Positions 37,735-52,328 of a stretch of 64,000 nt of DNA are shown one piece after another (the first letter of the stretch is position 1; every line of letters begins with the position of its first letter). Both the position numbers and the translations under genes were made by a program. The notes beneath the pieces were generated by a model. The model saw only the letters and a program-made list of their open reading frames with translations, had not been told where the DNA came from and searched no databases. This DNA comes from Anaerolineales bacterium (GTDB taxonomy: Bacteria > Chloroflexota > Anaerolineae > Anaerolineales > JBHHUI01): the NCBI GenBank assembly GCA_965248775.1, contig OZ252150.1:4900027-4964026 (forward strand), given 5' to 3'.

Positions 37735-38049
37735 GTGACTTTTATTCGCGCGTAAATGACGAGTACATTAGTCGTTTACTCGCTTTGTCCTAAATAGCCA
37801 GTTTTTTGCCTAAGTGACGGTGACGTATCGTTCGACGATACGCGCGAACATATTGAAGGTTGAAATTTAGCCCCACAAGGGTAAAAACTGGGTAAATAAA
37901 TCGAATCGCCGGTGCATCGGCTGTTGGGAATTGGAAAGAGGGCAGTGAGCCACTTCTGAATTCTTTCCAGTCCCTAACCCTTGTGCCCGGCAAAAAATTA
38001 TGCCAGACCCTCCCCGTATGTGACGGGCTGGGCACGGAGGTACTTTCAC

Positions 38050-40302
38050 ATGTCTGAAGCAAAACAATATAATGCCGTTGTCGGCGGAGATCTGATCACC
38101 GTCGAGACTGGCAAACTCGCGCGCCTGGCAGGCGGCGCTGTTACGATCCGTCAGGGCGATACCGTCCTGCTCGTAACAGCCACTATGTCCAAAAAGCCAC
38201 GCGACGGGATTTCTTTTCTCCCGCTCAGCGTTGACTATGAGGAACGCCTTTATGCAGCCGGGCGCATTCCCGGCTCGTTCTTCCGGCGCGAAGGTCGCCC
38301 GAGCGAAGGCGGCATTCTAACGTGCCGTCTGACGGACCGGCCACTGCGACCACTTTTCCCCAAAGATTTCCGCAACGAAGTCCAGATCATCATCACAGCG
38401 CTCTCGATCGACCAGACCTATCAGCCGGACATTCTTGCTGTGGTTGGTGCGAGCATGGCTCTTACACTGTCTGATATTCCATTCGGTGTCGCCCCCTACA
38501 ATGGGCCCATTGGTGCTGTGCGCGTCGGTCTGATCGACGGCGAATTCGTTGCCAATCCCACTTTCGACCAAATGTTCGAGACAACGCTCGACCTGCGCGT
38601 CGCCGGGACACGCGACGGTATAGGGATGGTGGAATGCGGTGCACAGGAAGTGTCCGAAGATACCATGGTAGCCGCGCTCGACTTCGCACACGAGCAATAT
38701 CAACCGTTGATCGATCTGCAGGTGCAGCTTGCCGAGGAAGCCGGGAAACCGAAGATCACTGATTACACTCGCTTTGCGCTGGATGAGAATATCAAGAGCG
38801 AAGTGTCTAATGCAATGCGCGAGCGAGTTGTCGGCGTGTTGGGCGAAGAACTGGACAAGGATGCTCGTGATGAGCAGTTGCGCACGCTCGAAGATGAACT
38901 CGTTGATTCCTATGATGGTCGCGACGATATTAATCTTTCCGATGTTCGCGATGCCTTCCACAGCATCGTCAAGACGGAAACGCGCCGCCGCATTGTCGAG
39001 GATCACGTTCGACCGGATGGTCGCGGTCTAACTGAGATTCGCCCGCTGGAGGCAGAGACCGGCCTTAGCCCGCGTGCACACGGCTCCGGCTTGTTCACAC
39101 GCGGCGAGACCCAGGTTCTCAGCCTGGCGACGCTAGGCACACCGCGTGATGCTCAGAGACTGGATACACTCTCTCCGGTGGACGAGAAGCGCTATATGCA
39201 TCACTATAATTTCCCGCCCTACAGCACCGGCGAGACCTGGTTCCTGCGGGGACCCAAACGCCGCGAAATTGGGCACGGCGCGCTCGCCGAGACCGCCCTG
39301 CGTTACGTACTGCCGTCTGTGGATGAGTTTCCCTACACCTTGCGGGTCGTCTCGGAATCTCTGGCTTCAAACGGCTCGACGTCAATGGCCTCAGTCTGCG
39401 GTTCCACGCTGGCATTGATGGATGCCGGTGTACCCATTCGAAAGCCCGTCGGCGGTATCGCCATGGGGCTCGTCAAAGAGGGTGAAAAATATGTAGTGCT
39501 GACGGATATCCAAGGTATGGAAGACCATATCGGGGATATGGACTTCAAAGTGGCCGGAACCGAAGATGGTATCACGGCCCTGCAAATGGATATCAAGATC
39601 ACCGGCATTACGCATGAGATCATGGCGCAGGCACTCTCGCAGGCGAAGGATGCTCGCGTTGCAATCTTGAAAACGATCACGGATCATATACCGGAAGCGC
39701 GCGCAGAGATGTCTCCGTTTGCGCCACGTATGACCATCGTGCAGGTGCCGATTGAGAAGATTGGTGCCATCATCGGGCCGGGGGGCAAGACAATCCGCGC
39801 GATTCAAGAAGATACCGGTGCGAAGATCGATATTGAGGATGATGGTCGTGTCTTCATCGCGGCTTCGGAAGGCCCGGCTGCGGATAAGGCCCGCGATCTA
39901 ATCGAAGCGCTCACGCAGTCCGCTGAGATCGGTACGATCTACACGGGCAAGGTTGTGCGCGTAACCGACTTTGGCGCGTTTGTCGAGGTGTTCCCTGGAA
40001 CGGAAGGACTGGTGCACATCAGCCAGCTTGCCGACTATCGTGTTGAACGCGTGGAAGATATCGCGCGTGAAGGCGATGAACTCACCGTGATGGTGACGGA
40101 TATCCGCAATGATGGCAAAATCCGTCTCTCGCGGCAGGCGGTTCTCGAGGGATGGACTGCCGAGGAAGCCCGTGAAAAGGATCGTCCTTCAGGCGGCCGG
40201 GGTGGAAATCGTGGCGGTGGTCGCGATAACCGTGGCGGTGGCCGTGGTCGCGGCGGCCAGCGTGGTGGACGGGATAACCGTGGTGGTGGTCAGCGCAGGT
40301 AG
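38050..40302 (+). CDS. pnp: Polyribonucleotide nucleotidyltransferase (PNPase) with an RGG-rich C-terminal tail
   Basis: Two RNase PH domains, KH (IGAIIGPGGKTIRAIQEDTGAKIDI) and S1 (GTIYTGKVVRVTDFGAFVEV), then GGRGGNRGGGRDNRGGGRGRGGQRGGRDNRGGGQRR. Start placed at the MSEAKQYNAV ATG. Confidence 0.97.
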   Translation: MSEAKQYNAVVGGDLITVETGKLARLAGGAVTIRQGDTVLLVTATMSKKPRDGISFLPLSVDYEERLYAAGRIPGSFFRREGRPSEGGILTCRLTDRPLRPLFPKDFRNEVQIIITALSIDQTYQPDILAVVGASMALTLSDIPFGVAPYNGPIGAVRVGLIDGEFVANPTFDQMFETTLDLRVAGTRDGIGMVECGAQEVSEDTMVAALDFAHEQYQPLIDLQVQLAEEAGKPKITDYTRFALDENIKSEVSNAMRERVVGVLGEELDKDARDEQLRTLEDELVDSYDGRDDINLSDVRDAFHSIVKTETRRRIVEDHVRPDGRGLTEIRPLEAETGLSPRAHGSGLFTRGETQVLSLATLGTPRDAQRLDTLSPVDEKRYMHHYNFPPYSTGETWFLRGPKRREIGHGALAETALRYVLPSVDEFPYTLRVVSESLASNGSTSMASVCGSTLALMDAGVPIRKPVGGIAMGLVKEGEKYVVLTDIQGMEDHIGDMDFKVAGTEDGITALQMDIKITGITHEIMAQALSQAKDARVAILKTITDHIPEARAEMSPFAPRMTIVQVPIEKIGAIIGPGGKTIRAIQEDTGAKIDIEDDGRVFIAASEGPAADKARDLIEALTQSAEIGTIYTGKVVRVTDFGAFVEVFPGTEGLVHISQLADYRVERVEDIAREGDELTVMVTDIRNDGKIRLSRQAVLEGWTAEEAREKDRPSGGRGGNRGGGRDNRGGGRGRGGQRGGRDNRGGGQRR

Positions 40303-47970: not shown

Positions 47971-48501
47971 ATGCGACCGGAGACTGCGATGACGGGACCA
48001 CTACGTAGGGAAATGCTGACTTGGAGCGATGTCGATAAGCTCATCGATGTACTTGTTCCCCAATTTGCCGGCGAATTCGATGCCATGGTCGTAATTACAC
48101 GTGGTGGCATTGTCCCCGGCGGTATGCTGGCTGAAGCGCTCAATCTGAAAGAGATCTTCCTTGCAGCGGTGAGTTTCCCGCTCATGGATGCGGAATATCG
48201 TCTACTCGCCTGGCCGGAGTTCCTTCAATTTCCTCGAGCGCACTTGCTTAGAGGGCGCCGAATATTGGTTGTGGACGATGTGTGGGGTTCCGGACGTACG
48301 ATGATTTCTGTCAAAGATGGTATCGAGGCCGCCAATGGCAATCCGCAGACCTGCGTCCTGCACTTCAACCCGTATCGTTCGCTGTTCCGCGAAGCGAAAC
48401 CGGATTATTATGGCGCCAGCACAGATGCCCACATCGTTTACCCCTGGGAAATTGACCGAGGCGGAGAGTACTCGAATTTAGAGCCGGGTTTCTCCAACTG
48501 A
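47971..48501 (+). CDS. Phosphoribosyltransferase (purine PRT-like)
   Basis: PRPP-binding motif RILVVDDVWGSGRT. Small size and N-terminal layout resemble xanthine-guanine PRTs. Confidence 0.8.
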   Translation: MRPETAMTGPLRREMLTWSDVDKLIDVLVPQFAGEFDAMVVITRGGIVPGGMLAEALNLKEIFLAAVSFPLMDAEYRLLAWPEFLQFPRAHLLRGRRILVVDDVWGSGRTMISVKDGIEAANGNPQTCVLHFNPYRSLFREAKPDYYGASTDAHIVYPWEIDRGGEYSNLEPGFSN

Positions 48502-48579
48502 GTGAATCCCACCGCTCTATATCCCGGCCAATATTTCAACTTTAAAAACACGATCTTATGTAAAAAAATCCGCCTCTCG

Positions 48580-48608
48580 TTGACTCTGAACTTTCAGCGC
48601 GGTATAAT
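48580..48608 (+). promoter_or_regulatory. Consensus sigma70-type promoter (TTGACT, 17 nt, TATAAT)
   Basis: ttgact at 48580-48585, a 17-nt spacer, and tataat at 48603-48608. Confidence 0.7.
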
Positions 48609-48613
48609 GCGGT

Positions 48614-48838
48614 CAAGTCCGGCAGTAGCTTATGTTAATTACGGCGAGGGGATTGGTGGTCCGGGCTCATACAACCAGGGAAAACCGGAACCACGGACAG
48701 GTTGTACGACCCTCGTATTTTAGGTCGGACTTGTAGCAACATCGCGGGGTATTGCCTAAGAGTAAACTCACGGACAATAACCAGGTAAGACCCGACGCAG
48801 TGTGGCACCTGTCCCGTTTGGTGACGGTGCCATTTTTT
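48614..48838 (+). ncRNA. Candidate structured RNA of unknown class (stand-alone sRNA or cis-regulatory leader of rpsA)
   Basis: Lies between the consensus promoter and an intrinsic terminator. Nested helices are 48614-23/48724-33 (10 bp), 48645-50/48710-15 and 48671-76/48700-05. A second domain has 48743-48/48791-97, 48752-57/48783-88 and a GAG-uaaa-CUC hairpin. There is no credible sense ORF. Confidence 0.55.
48804..48838 (+). terminator. Intrinsic terminator (end of the candidate RNA, or an attenuator before rpsA)
   Basis: ggcacc(t)gtc-ccgtttggt-gacggtgcc followed by a-tttttt-at, 40 nt upstream of the rpsA ATG. Confidence 0.8.
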
Positions 48839-48877
48839 ATTGCATCTCGCTGAGTTGCGAAGGATTGCGCTGCCGAC

Positions 48878-50140
48878 ATGGACGAAACGCCGGACGACGA
48901 AAACTTAAGCCCCGAAGACGATTTCGCCTTACTGATGGAAGCCGTCGACGATATTTCGATGCCAAAAGTCGGCGAATTACTTCAGGGCACTGTGATCAGC
49001 GTTGACACCGATGGTGCTGTGCTCGGCCTCGGCCAGAAGCGAGATGGCTTCGTTCCGCGTGCTGATTTAGATCGTGCGGACAAAGATTTATCTCCTGGTG
49101 ATAGCGTATCGGCAGTGCTCGTCTCGGTTAGAGGCCGCGATGGGCACCTCGAACTATCGGTCTATCAAGCTCGTCAAAACGAAGATTGGTTGCGTGCCGA
49201 AGCTTTGCTCGAATCTGGCGAGCTTTGGGTGACGAAAGTAAATGGATATAACCGTGGCGGCCTGATTGTTCCGTTTGGCGGTCTGCGCGGCTTTGTGCCT
49301 GCTTCGCACATCGCCGATCTGCCACGCGGTATTTCTGAAAATGATCGTCACAACCGTCTGATCGCTATGGTCGATGAAGAATTAGGCCTGAAAGTGATCG
49401 AGGTCGATCGTCTCCGTCACCGGCTTGTACTTTCGCAACGCGAAGCTCAGCGTGAATGGCGTGCTCGCCGGAAAGCAGAACTACTTGATTCATTAGAAGA
49501 AGGGCAAGTCCTCAAAGGCCTGGTTAGCGGACTACGGGAATTTGGGGCCTTCATCGATTTGGGTGGCGCGGATGGTCTGGTGCACGTTTCTGAACTGGCT
49601 TGGCAACGTGTGGAACATCCCCGCGAAGTTGTCCAAATTGGGGATGAGATTGATGTCATGGTCATCCGGGTTGACATCGAACGAAATCGCATTGGCCTGA
49701 GTCGCAAGAGGTTGCAGGCCGACCCCTGGGAGGGCGTCGAAGAGCAATACGTCGTCGGCCAAGAGTTGAACGGAACGGTCACTCGCCTTGCCCCATTCGG
49801 TGCATTTGTGGAACTGGGCGATGGCATCGAAGGTCTTTTACATAGTAGTGAAATCCCGGAAGATTTGACCCATGTGGTTCAACTTGGCGTCGAACTTCGA
49901 TTGCGAATTGGGAATGTAGATGCAAATCGACAGCGCATCGGTCTGAGCCTGCAGGGAATGGGCGAGTCGGAAGCGGGGGAAGATAGCTCCGAGACCGAAA
50001 GCTCGGATAGTGACGAGTCAGCGCTGCAGTCTGAAACCTCCGACGCCGTTCCGGAGGCGGGGGGTGAGAATGCCCCTCACTGGGAAAGGTATGCAGAAGA
50101 ATATGAAGAATCTAATGAAGATGATTGGGAAGGGGGGTGA
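48878..50140 (+). CDS. rpsA: 30S ribosomal protein S1 (four S1 domains, acidic C-terminal tail)
   Basis: Repeated S1 motifs (GELLQGTVISV..., GELWVTKVNGYNRGGLIV..., GQVLKGLVSGLREFGAFIDL..., GQELNGTVTRLAPFGAFVEL...). Confidence 0.9.
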   Translation: MDETPDDENLSPEDDFALLMEAVDDISMPKVGELLQGTVISVDTDGAVLGLGQKRDGFVPRADLDRADKDLSPGDSVSAVLVSVRGRDGHLELSVYQARQNEDWLRAEALLESGELWVTKVNGYNRGGLIVPFGGLRGFVPASHIADLPRGISENDRHNRLIAMVDEELGLKVIEVDRLRHRLVLSQREAQREWRARRKAELLDSLEEGQVLKGLVSGLREFGAFIDLGGADGLVHVSELAWQRVEHPREVVQIGDEIDVMVIRVDIERNRIGLSRKRLQADPWEGVEEQYVVGQELNGTVTRLAPFGAFVELGDGIEGLLHSSEIPEDLTHVVQLGVELRLRIGNVDANRQRIGLSLQGMGESEAGEDSSETESSDSDESALQSETSDAVPEAGGENAPHWERYAEEYEESNEDDWEGG

Positions 50141-50146
50141 TATTGT

Positions 50147-50341
50147 ATGGCGACTGTAAAACTACAGCCTAACGAATCACAGGAACAGTTGCTCAAACGC
50201 TTTCGCAAGAAAGTAGTGAAGAGTGGCATTCTGAGCACGGTACGACGCAAGCGTTGGTTTATTTCCAAGAGCGAATTACGCCGTATCCAGAAAAAGAAAG
50301 CTATTCGGCGCATCAAGCGCCGCACAAGGCGCTTTAATTGA
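50147..50341 (+). CDS. rpsU: 30S ribosomal protein S21
   Basis: MATVKLQPNESQEQLLKRFRKKVVKSGILSTVRRKRWFISKSELRRIQKKKAIRR. Confidence 0.92.
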   Translation: MATVKLQPNESQEQLLKRFRKKVVKSGILSTVRRKRWFISKSELRRIQKKKAIRRIKRRTRRFN

Positions 50342-50381: not shown

Positions 50382-50636
50382 ATGGCTAAGGAAGAAAAAA
50401 TCGAAATGGAGGGCAAAGTCATTGAGGCTTTGCCGGCAACTCAATTCAAGGTGGAATTGGACAATGGGCATGAGGTACTGGCGTATCTTTCTGGCAAGAT
50501 GCGAAAGTATTACATCCGTATCTTATTGGGCGATCGGGTAAAAGTTGAAATTTCGCCTTACGATCTGACACGCGGTCGCATCACGTTTCGCTACCGAAAA
50601 GATCAACACCAGCAACCTGCCAGTCCTACCAAATAG
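50382..50636 (+). CDS. infA: Translation initiation factor IF-1
   Basis: [71 protein letters not shown]. Confidence 0.97.
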
Positions 50637-50742: not shown

Positions 50743-52328
50743 CAGTTTGTCGGAGAGCAACCTGAGATAGCGAAATCGGTGATAATCTACGGGCATGGCT
50801 AGAAAATTCAAGAAACCCAATTACGAAGTGATGCTCAAACAGACAATCAGTCTGGAAGAAGCCCTGCCATCCAATCATTTGGCACGATTTGTGGTGGATG
50901 TTATCGCCCAGTTGGATTTGGGTATGATCTATGCACAATATGCACCGACGGGTGGTCAACCTATTGCGCCAGAGATCCTGTTGGGATTGCTCTTCTATGG
51001 TTATGCCAACGGGGTGTTCAGTTCTCGTAAGATTGAGAAAGCCACCTATGAGAGTATCCCATTCCGCTATATTGCCAGTGGGCTGCATCCTGACCACGAC
51101 ACAATTGCCAACTTTCGCAAAACCTTTCTGGCTGCGATCCAAGAGTTATTTGTGCAGATCTTGCTCCTGGCCCAAGTTGCTGAGGTGCTGAAGTTGGGTA
51201 ATATCAGTCTGGATGGTAGCAAGGTGCATGCTGATGCATCCAAGAGCAAAGCGGTCAGTTACAAGCGTCTGATAAAACTAGAGACCCAACTGCGCCAGGA
51301 AGTGAACAAACTCTTCGAACTCGGTGAGCAAGCTGATCAGGGTGATCTCCAGTTGCCGGAAGGGCTCGTCATTGAAGACGAAATTGCCATTCGCAAGAAA
51401 CGTTTGGCAAATCTGGCAGAAGCCAAAGCCGTCTTAGAAGCCCGTGCGCAGGAACGATATGAAGCCGAGAGGGCTGAATACGAAGCCAAACAGCGTGAGC
51501 GGGAAGAAAAGTCTCGCAAAACTGGGCATAAACCCCGAGGTCGCAAACCGAAACCACCGCAGCCGGGACCACGGGACAAAGATCAGTACAACTTCACTGA
51601 TCCGGACTCTCGCATCATGAAAAACAGCACCAATAATGGCTTCGACCAGCATTACAACGTTCAAGTTGCTGTGGAGCAGGAGAGCCTCTTGATTGTGGCG
51701 CCTTCACTTTCGAACCATCCGAATGACAAAAAAGAAGCTGAGCCAACCCTGGATGCCATCTCTCCAAAAGTAGGCAAACCAAAGGCTGCCGCTTTGGATT
51801 ATGGATATTTCAGCAAAGCGAACATCGCAGCACTTGAGAAGCTTGGCATTGATCCTTACATTGCTACCGGTCGCGAACCTCACCACAAAAGCTGGCGTAC
51901 CTTCTTTGAACAAATGCCTGCTCCGCCACCGGAAGATGCCAGTCCGAAAGTCAAGATGGCTTACAAACTACAAACCGAAATCGGCAAAGCCAGCTACCGT
52001 TTACGCAAATGCACAGTGGAACCCGTCATTGGTATCATCAAGGAAGTCCTGGGCTTCCGCCAGTTTTCTCTGCGCGGCCTGCTGGCAGCAGCCGGGGAAT
52101 GGTGTCTGGTCTGCCTAGCGTTCAACCTCAAACGCATGCACACCCTCTACCAAGCAAAGGGTTTGCTTTAGCCGGGGCTGCTTTGGCGCGCCTGCTACTC
52201 GCTGAGAGAAGGTGGTTTGCCCTCCATGAAATGCACACTGTTTTACGCTTGTTTTGTCGCAATCAACTGCTCATTTTGCCCTGTAGGGCTATTCATGTTG
52301 TAAAAGTACTTGTCTCTCCGACAAACTG
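50743..52328 (+). mobile_element. IS1182-family insertion sequence, copy A (1586 bp)
   Basis: The ends are cagtttgtcggagag... and ...ctctccgacaaactg. Flanked by ctag at 50739-50742 and 52329-52332. Confidence 0.85.
50795..52171 (+). CDS. IS1182-family (IS5-like) transposase (458 aa), copy A
   Basis: InsH-type N-terminus LPSNHLARFVVDVIAQLDL...PEILLGLLFYGYANGVFSSRKIE...DHDTIANFRK, a coiled-coil middle, and C-terminal ...CTVEPVIGIIKEVLGFRQFSLRGL...NLKRM. Confidence 0.8.
   Translation: MARKFKKPNYEVMLKQTISLEEALPSNHLARFVVDVIAQLDLGMIYAQYAPTGGQPIAPEILLGLLFYGYANGVFSSRKIEKATYESIPFRYIASGLHPDHDTIANFRKTFLAAIQELFVQILLLAQVAEVLKLGNISLDGSKVHADASKSKAVSYKRLIKLETQLRQEVNKLFELGEQADQGDLQLPEGLVIEDEIAIRKKRLANLAEAKAVLEARAQERYEAERAEYEAKQREREEKSRKTGHKPRGRKPKPPQPGPRDKDQYNFTDPDSRIMKNSTNNGFDQHYNVQVAVEQESLLIVAPSLSNHPNDKKEAEPTLDAISPKVGKPKAAALDYGYFSKANIAALEKLGIDPYIATGREPHHKSWRTFFEQMPAPPPEDASPKVKMAYKLQTEIGKASYRLRKCTVEPVIGIIKEVLGFRQFSLRGLLAAAGEWCLVCLAFNLKRMHTLYQAKGLL

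Follow-up and report, generated by a model that had tools for sequence, protein, structure and literature searches.

The region immediately upstream of the ribosomal protein S1 gene (rpsA) in the 64-kb stretch of Anaerolineales DNA analyzed here (the window) encodes an RNA of ~224 nucleotides (nt) that we interpret, with a probability of roughly 0.6, as the 5′ leader of the rpsA-rpsU-infA operon, specific to its lineage and acting as a transcription attenuator, with domains that sense a signal and with feedback by S1 as the likeliest form of control. The element is real and conserved. According to the proposed mechanism, a strong sigma-70-type promoter would start transcription near position 48615, and the nascent RNA would fold into a first domain closed by helix P1 (~48614 to 48733) and a second domain (~48744 to 48798). 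RNA polymerase would then encounter an intrinsic terminator (48804 to 48838), and only read-through transcripts would reach rpsA, 39 nt on, so that the read-through fraction would set the expression of the operon. The structured domains would act as a sensor that biases terminator formation, and binding of free S1, or of another product of the operon, to the leader would provide negative feedback.

Promoter, terminator, and operon context

All features described here lie on the plus strand unless stated otherwise. The promoter consists of a −35 hexamer, TTGACT (48580 to 48585), which is TTGACA or TTGACT in all relatives, and a −10 hexamer, TATAAT (48603 to 48608), which is invariant in alignment A4 and is followed by a G+C-rich discriminator (GCGGTC). 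With its 17-nt spacing, the promoter that the first-pass annotation had proposed at 48580 to 48608 matches 11 of the 12 consensus positions, and only two sites in the window reach at least 11 matches when both strands are scanned. The other such site (TTCACA-17-TATAAT, 11 matches) is at 38045 to 38073, also on the plus strand.

We placed the start of the leader 7 nt past the −10 hexamer and its 3′ end at the end of the U-tract, which gives an RNA of ~224 nt (48615 to 48838) that is matched in relatives by both nhmmer and a covariance model (R2). This agrees with the earlier description of an RNA of ~225 nt that ends in a strong terminator just before the S1 start, as the U-tract ends 39 nt from the ATG. 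The terminator (48804 to 48838) is formed by a stem-loop at 48804 to 48831 and a run of six U residues at 48833 to 48838. Its hairpin, GGCACC-u-GUCCC-guuu-GG-u-GAC-GGUGCC, has 12 bp, is G+C rich, and has a folding energy of −18 kcal/mol. Thus, a G+C-rich hairpin with a U-tract separates the leader domains from rpsA, the first gene of the operon.

The terminator is followed by a 39-nt spacer (48839 to 48877) with a weak Shine-Dalgarno (SD)-like sequence, GAAGGA. A scan of this spacer found no second promoter or promoter-like site between the terminator and rpsA, and there is no room for one either. The ATG at 48878 is the earliest start possible for the S1 open reading frame (ORF). Pfam confirmed the three downstream genes as initially named: rpsA (48878 to 50140; S1, 420 amino acids with four S1 domains), rpsU (50147 to 50341; S21), and infA (50382 to 50636; IF1). 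Upstream of the leader, a phosphoribosyltransferase (PRTase) gene ends at 48501. The leader therefore sits 5′ of a ribosomal protein operon on the same strand without an intervening promoter, and because rpsA is transcribed only through the terminator, the element is most likely an attenuator. Directly 3′ of infA, the window carries an IS5-like transposase gene (DUF772 and DDE_Tnp_1 domains; 50795 to 52171), whereas relatives have a gene with an SH3_3 domain at this position.

Conservation and folding of the leader

The leader did not match any known RNA family. At the gathering score, Rfam 15 matched no family in the whole window or in 20 related loci, and at an E value of ≤10 the sole match in the interval from 48450 to 48950 was a chance CRISPR repeat, with no known riboswitch aptamer class among the results. 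ARAGORN found no tRNA or tmRNA genes in the window. The first-pass annotation had called the RNA unclassified, and the cmscan comparison with Rfam is in agreement, as it gave no confident match that would assign the leader to a known family. The resemblances of short stretches to the RNase P P4 region, the M-box (ykoK), and the T-box are unsupported, because the respective covariance models did not match between 48450 and 48950 even at E ≤ 10. The window-type leader is an RNA absent from Rfam and is best read as a ribosomal protein operon leader or attenuator of narrow distribution.

Comparison of the regions upstream of rpsA, which had been suggested as a check, recovered the leader from all close relatives retrieved, where it immediately precedes rpsA-rpsU-infA. 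The window-type set comprises five distinct sequences, four of them close, from loci whose S1 is 66 to 98% identical to that of the window. By its S1 protein, the window belongs to the Anaerolineae (Chloroflexota). The S1 protein of the window is 97.6% identical to that of L092, 96.2% identical to those of L089, L090, and L091, 92% identical to those of L081 and L082, and 62 to 66% identical (global alignment) to those of L001 and L093 to L095; for L001, identity reaches 68% in the best tblastn segment. Leader matches by nhmmer and model R2 were found in L001, L081 and L082, and L089 to L095, always on the strand of rpsA and with the 3′ end ~40 nt before it. When the leader was compared by nhmmer with 85 loci, only close relatives matched, and model R2 likewise had no match at ~75 other Anaerolineae rpsA loci, recovering only the lineage on which it was trained. 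The window has a single copy, and no leader was found away from rpsA in the rpsA loci retrieved and the window. We also scanned metagenomes with two patterns. The first, CGGACTTGTAGCAACANCGCGG, gave 0 matches, and this stretch was later seen to vary in L089 and L090; the second, GGACAGGNTGTACN{10,40}TTGTAGCAAC, gave 2 chance matches, both within ORFs and without a match to model R2. The distribution of the window-type RNA is limited to one narrow lineage of uncultured bacteria.

In L081 and L082, an insertion sequence (IS) element has entered between the PRTase gene and the promoter, and the unit of promoter, RNA, and rpsA has remained intact. The transposase of this IS element has HTH_23/28/29/32 domains. 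The element is on the minus strand at L081:1266-2591 and L082:1392-2591, and it was inserted just 5′ of an A-rich stretch located before the −35 hexamer. Three assemblies, independent of one another and including a JGI metagenome, carry a variant leader (L090:308-542, L089:1-220, and L091:1-220) in which four substitutions break pairs and the U-tract is interrupted to UUUAUUGUUG. This variant may represent a leader in decay or one that is tuned differently.

Between the window and L001, the leader is 69% identical, compared with 68 to 71% for the coding DNA of rpsA, 41% for the spacer upstream of the promoter, and 59% for the spacer after the terminator. The ~190 nt of the leader 5′ of the terminator are thus conserved at a level similar to that of coding sequence, which suggests that these nucleotides are probably a sensor. 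The aligned leaders differ by indels of 2, 1, 6, and 1 nt, so the leader has no conserved reading frame. Together with G-U pairs that are possible only on the plus strand, these indels argue for constraint at the level of RNA. A protein-coding reading of the region was rejected for the same reason, as larger ORFs overlap it but the indels keep no frame.

A short ORF of 34 codons (48632 to 48736) nevertheless deserves mention, because its translation, as opposed to its peptide product, could couple ribosome availability to the formation of the terminator. Its AUG is conserved within the invariant UAUGUUAAU, and the ORF is open in 5 of 5 distinct sequences, even in L001, where it is frame-shifted relative to the nucleotide alignment. 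We estimate the probability of its staying open by chance at ~0.05 to 0.2, however, and the ORF has no SD sequence. Changes among close relatives are mostly non-synonymous (~4 to 1) and give no indication of purifying selection, L001 encodes an unrelated central segment of the peptide, and in L090 the ORF stops elsewhere. Moreover, the stop lies ~65 nt before the terminator, and the leader family that is widespread in other Anaerolineae (model R1; see below) has no ORF that conserves its frame. We therefore consider control by translation of this ORF to be highly improbable. The stop codon of the ORF falls in the conserved junction past P1.

The secondary structure of domain 1 is closed by P1, whose 5′ strand (48614 to 48623) pairs with 48724 to 48733; the 3′ strand is followed by a nearly invariant junction, UAGCAACA. 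This helix, caagtccggc/gtcggacttg in the first-pass annotation, is kept in relatives, with 9 to 10 of its 10 pairs retained in the five distinct sequences through one-sided G-U/A-U changes. Also retained is P2, which pairs CGAGGG (48645 to 48650) with CCCUCG (48710 to 48715): two compensatory pairs occur in L001 (A-U to G-C and G-C to C-G), along with one mismatch in L001 and one in L090. The proposed acaacc/ggttgt helix, in contrast, is broken by substitutions in relatives. In its place we recognize P3 (48683 to 48703), a hairpin chosen post hoc that pairs AACC (48683 to 48686) with GGUU (48700 to 48703) and has one compensatory pair in L001 (A-U to G-C).

For domain 2 (48744 to 48798), RNAalifold predicted a base helix (GCG-GGG/CCC-ga-CGC), a UAUUGCC/GG-a-CAAUA helix, and a GAG-uaaa-CUC hairpin, and all pairs are kept except in L090. 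The base helix (first described as cgcggg/cccg(a)cg) and the GAG/CUC pairing of the hairpin had been proposed earlier and are conserved in relatives. Substitutions break the uugccu/agguaa helix of the same proposal; the alternative UAUUGCC/GG-a-CAAUA helix has the one compensatory pair of domain 2. The terminator stem keeps all of its pairs in each of the five distinct sequences; one C-G pair has become U-G in L001. Pairing of the window start region with P1 was also considered, and it is not conserved.

Altogether, the leader has four compensatory pairs. With five distinct sequences, four of which are close, this covariation is not statistically robust, and as the refined structure was also chosen on these sequences, the comparative support is suggestive rather than proof. 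Predicted paired sites have 2 to 5 times fewer substitutions in three of four comparisons (L092, L081, and L001), but not in L090. The folding energy of the leader is barely better than that of shuffled sequences (window, z = −2.0; L001, z = −1.4), and the reverse strand does equally well (z = −2.1). The earlier description of the RNA as highly structured thus holds with respect to conservation but draws nothing from folding energy.

Terminator-containing leaders across the Anaerolineae

A perfect TTGACA-17-TATAAT promoter lies 170 to 310 nt upstream of rpsA at nearly all of the ~75 other Anaerolineae loci. At ~60 of them, a G+C-rich hairpin with a UUUUAUUUU-type run behind it is found ~100 nt past the start. 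Across these loci, the interval from the hairpin to rpsA almost never includes a further promoter-like site. We aligned 44 of these leaders as a 113-nt family (model R1, alignment A2), which has, in order, GAUUUUUGGUGAGG, a short P1 helix, UCCGAGCCUGG, the terminator hairpin, and UUUUAUUUUGCC; the terminator covaries. Model R1 matched 60 loci (within L011 to L075) with E values from 1e-2 to 5e-27, always at the position of the rpsA leader (for instance, L014:2734-2846 and L018:2828-2945) and always behind a perfect TTGACA-17-TATAAT promoter, and the family is absent from Rfam 15.

The R1 and window-type leaders are not detectably related in sequence. Even at E ≤ 10, model R1 failed to match the window, L001, or L081, and R2 had no match at R1 loci; we therefore dropped the idea that the window leader is homologous to the widespread R1 leader. 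The shared layout despite unrelated sequences indicates that a terminator-containing rpsA leader is a class-wide feature of the Anaerolineae, of which the window carries a long, lineage-restricted version. Like the window leader, the R1 leader (of Aggregatilineales/Phototrophicaceae-type Anaerolineae) lies before an rpsA(-rpsU)-infA operon and combines a consensus promoter with a hairpin and a U-rich tract, with no second promoter. The window leader is twice as long, however, and 39 nt, rather than ~60 to 180 nt, separate its terminator from the start codon. Still other leaders, both equipped with a promoter and a terminator, occur at two further loci with S1 proteins 54 to 56% identical to that of the window (L083:2788-3000 and L084:1966-2123). 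In L083, ~150 nt precede the terminator, and in L084 a bare terminator hairpin begins ~15 nt past the −10 hexamer. The operons of both loci are rpsA-infA without rpsU.

The class-wide layout bears on whether the RNA could instead be a stand-alone small RNA (sRNA), acting in trans or by binding a protein, with rpsA expressed through incidental read-through. The RNA has its own consensus promoter and its own strong, fully conserved terminator, it is better conserved than the 39-nt spacer after it, and premature termination would in any case yield an abundant, discrete RNA of ~224 nt. Against this, rpsA has no other promoter, so its transcription unit is not separable from that of the RNA. The RNA always adjoins rpsA in the loci retrieved and the window, where a free-standing sRNA might show variable context, and no target or partner is evident. 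Moreover, unrelated leaders with the same layout and position in other Anaerolineae fit a function in cis. The first-pass annotation had offered both roles. We regard the independent sRNA as unlikely and favor the terminator-based leader of rpsA-rpsU-infA, for which the evidence is the lack of a separate rpsA promoter, the linkage kept despite the upstream IS insertion, and the recurrence of the layout across the class. In particular, the layout of a leader with a terminator and no second promoter, found throughout the class, makes an rpsA leader the best reading of the window RNA.

For this attenuator, we infer that termination is regulated. A candidate anti-terminator strand, GGACAGGU (48695 to 48702), is complementary to ACCUGUCC at 48807 to 48814 in the 5′ arm of the terminator. 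The pairing has 8 of 8 positions in three sequences and 7 of 8 in L090 and L001, with no covariation, and it is present in the minimum-energy fold of L081 when the sequence is truncated before the 3′ arm of the terminator. We estimate the chance expectation of such an 8-mer complementary to the terminator arm at ~0.04. GGACAGGU lies apically in domain 1 and could serve as the strand that keeps the terminator from forming. In the R1 family, the search for an anti-terminator gave only weak, non-covarying candidates of 4 to 5 bp. As no convincing alternative structure emerged, termination may be constitutive or dependent on a factor rather than sensed by the leader.

Alternatively, the hairpin and U-tract could simply damp or stabilize the output of a very strong promoter, as an unregulated attenuator or 5′ untranslated region (UTR) module in which nothing is sensed. 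Neither the window type nor the 44-sequence R1 family has a convincing anti-terminator, L084 has a bare terminator directly past its promoter, and the U-tract is degraded in L015, L022, L072, and L090. A passive damper, however, would have no need for ~190 conserved nt with structure-preserving changes, and we consider this explanation rather improbable.

The sensor could also be an aptamer for a small molecule, for instance a signal of growth rate or the stringent response, that controls the terminator as a transcriptional riboswitch does. The size of the leader, its multi-helix architecture, and a terminator in the place of an expression platform are all riboswitch-like, and the leader has the invariant single-stranded stretches UAUGUUAAU, UGGUGG, and UAGCAACA. 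Yet no riboswitch in Rfam matched, the RNA is seen only upstream of rpsA at the loci of one narrow lineage, and the candidate anti-terminator shows no covariation. Moreover, sister lineages have unrelated leaders for the same gene, which is unusual for aptamers and typical of protein-binding leaders. A riboswitch is thus improbable, and we retain the attenuator with feedback by an operon product as the preferred reading.

Comparison with known ribosomal protein leaders

S1 is essential for translation initiation. In gamma-proteobacteria, S1 acts on the 5′ UTR of its own mRNA to repress its synthesis (PMC10931766, PMC3616713), and S1 feedback has been verified only in this group and only at the level of translation (PMC3616713, PMC10931766). 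Like the Escherichia coli and other gamma-proteobacterial rpsA operators, the window leader is an rpsA 5′ UTR with AU-rich single-stranded stretches, and it has a weak SD or none at the start (GAAGGA in the window and none in L001). By analogy with the gamma-proteobacterial operator, we presume S1 feedback for the window leader, and S1 is the most likely effector. S21, IF1, or a metabolite could serve as the effector just as well, with S21 a less consistent candidate because rpsU is missing from the operons of L083 and L084. The E. coli operator differs in that it comprises ~90 nt, with three hairpins and AU-rich linkers that include the start region, and acts on translation initiation, whereas the window leader is ~224 nt long, has a terminator 39 nt before the ATG, and belongs to a different phylum. 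Neither in sequence nor in architecture do the two evidently resemble each other. In the window, the rpsA start region lies outside the conserved fold, and of the features of an E. coli-type S1 operator at the start, only the weak SD is shared.

A cyanobacterial motif upstream of rpsA (cyano-30S/Cyano-S1; Weinberg 2007, cited in PMC3616713) is still a candidate. This motif and the window leader are both lineage-specific candidate structured RNAs before rpsA found by comparative genomics, but they differ in size, phylum, and expression platform, and the window leader has no Rfam match. The cyanobacterial rpsA motif has an Rfam entry. In the literature that we searched, no rpsA leader is described in Chloroflexota.

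At the E. coli S10 leader (L4 with NusA) and the Bacillus subtilis L20 leader (infC operon), control by ribosomal proteins through transcription attenuation is established. The B. subtilis L10 leader is likewise a case of transcription attenuation by a ribosomal protein (PMC10931766). These three systems share with the window a strong promoter, a structured leader, and a terminator shortly before the first ribosomal protein gene, and read-through sets the output of their operons, as we propose here. The L20 operon also includes a gene for an initiation factor, as rpsA-rpsU-infA does. The window leader is, however, unrelated to the L10 and L20 leaders in sequence and structure, with no match to their Rfam models. 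Further, the sensed protein would be S1, unlike in the S10, L20, and L10 systems, and the anti-terminator is only a candidate. We know of no rRNA site of S1 that a leader could mimic.

A more specific version of the attenuator reading is that the leader is a new class of sensor of free S1 or of translation-initiation capacity that acts through termination ahead of rpsA-rpsU-infA and is one of several unrelated, fast-evolving leaders that would lie between a consensus promoter and rpsA in all Anaerolineae. We advance this version tentatively, as possible rather than probable. If true, the leader would represent two firsts: a transcription attenuator that responds to S1, and an S1 feedback element characterized outside the gamma-proteobacteria. 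The class-wide architecture, together with the R1 family, is the more notable by-product of the analysis: a terminator leader before rpsA throughout this class of Chloroflexota points to a transcriptional route to S1 homeostasis. Neither the window-type nor the R1-type leader is cataloged in Rfam, and models R1 and R2 could be used to annotate rpsA leaders in Anaerolineae genomes. The leaders also provide concrete RNAs for asking how S1, a protein of low sequence specificity, recognizes its own message.

Several short motifs recur in the leaders. At the 5′ end of almost every Anaerolineae rpsA leader is a U-rich stretch and then an SD-like motif (GGGAGA, GGAGG, or GGUGAGG), behind which there is no start codon. 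The U-rich/SD-like start falls within the first ~25 nt past the −10 hexamer in L004 to L012, L024, L030, L046, L051, L065, L076, and L077, and it is also found in leaders without an R1 match or a terminator. It might be a 5′ stabilizer or a decoy ribosome-binding site. In the window-type leader, GAGGGGAUUGGUGG occurs ~35 nt in. Pairing of the 5′ motif GGUGAG of R1 leaders with a downstream CUCACC was considered and is not conserved. Many R1-type loci (e.g., L014, L026, and L069) have AAUCGUUCGGGGAGA at the rpsA ribosome-binding site, ~20 nt before the start. Because this sequence repeats AUCGUUCG of the 5′ strand of the R1 P1 helix, the 3′ strand of that helix (GACGAAC) could pair with either copy; alternatively, one factor could bind both the AAUCGUUCGGGGAGA and AUCGUUCG sites.
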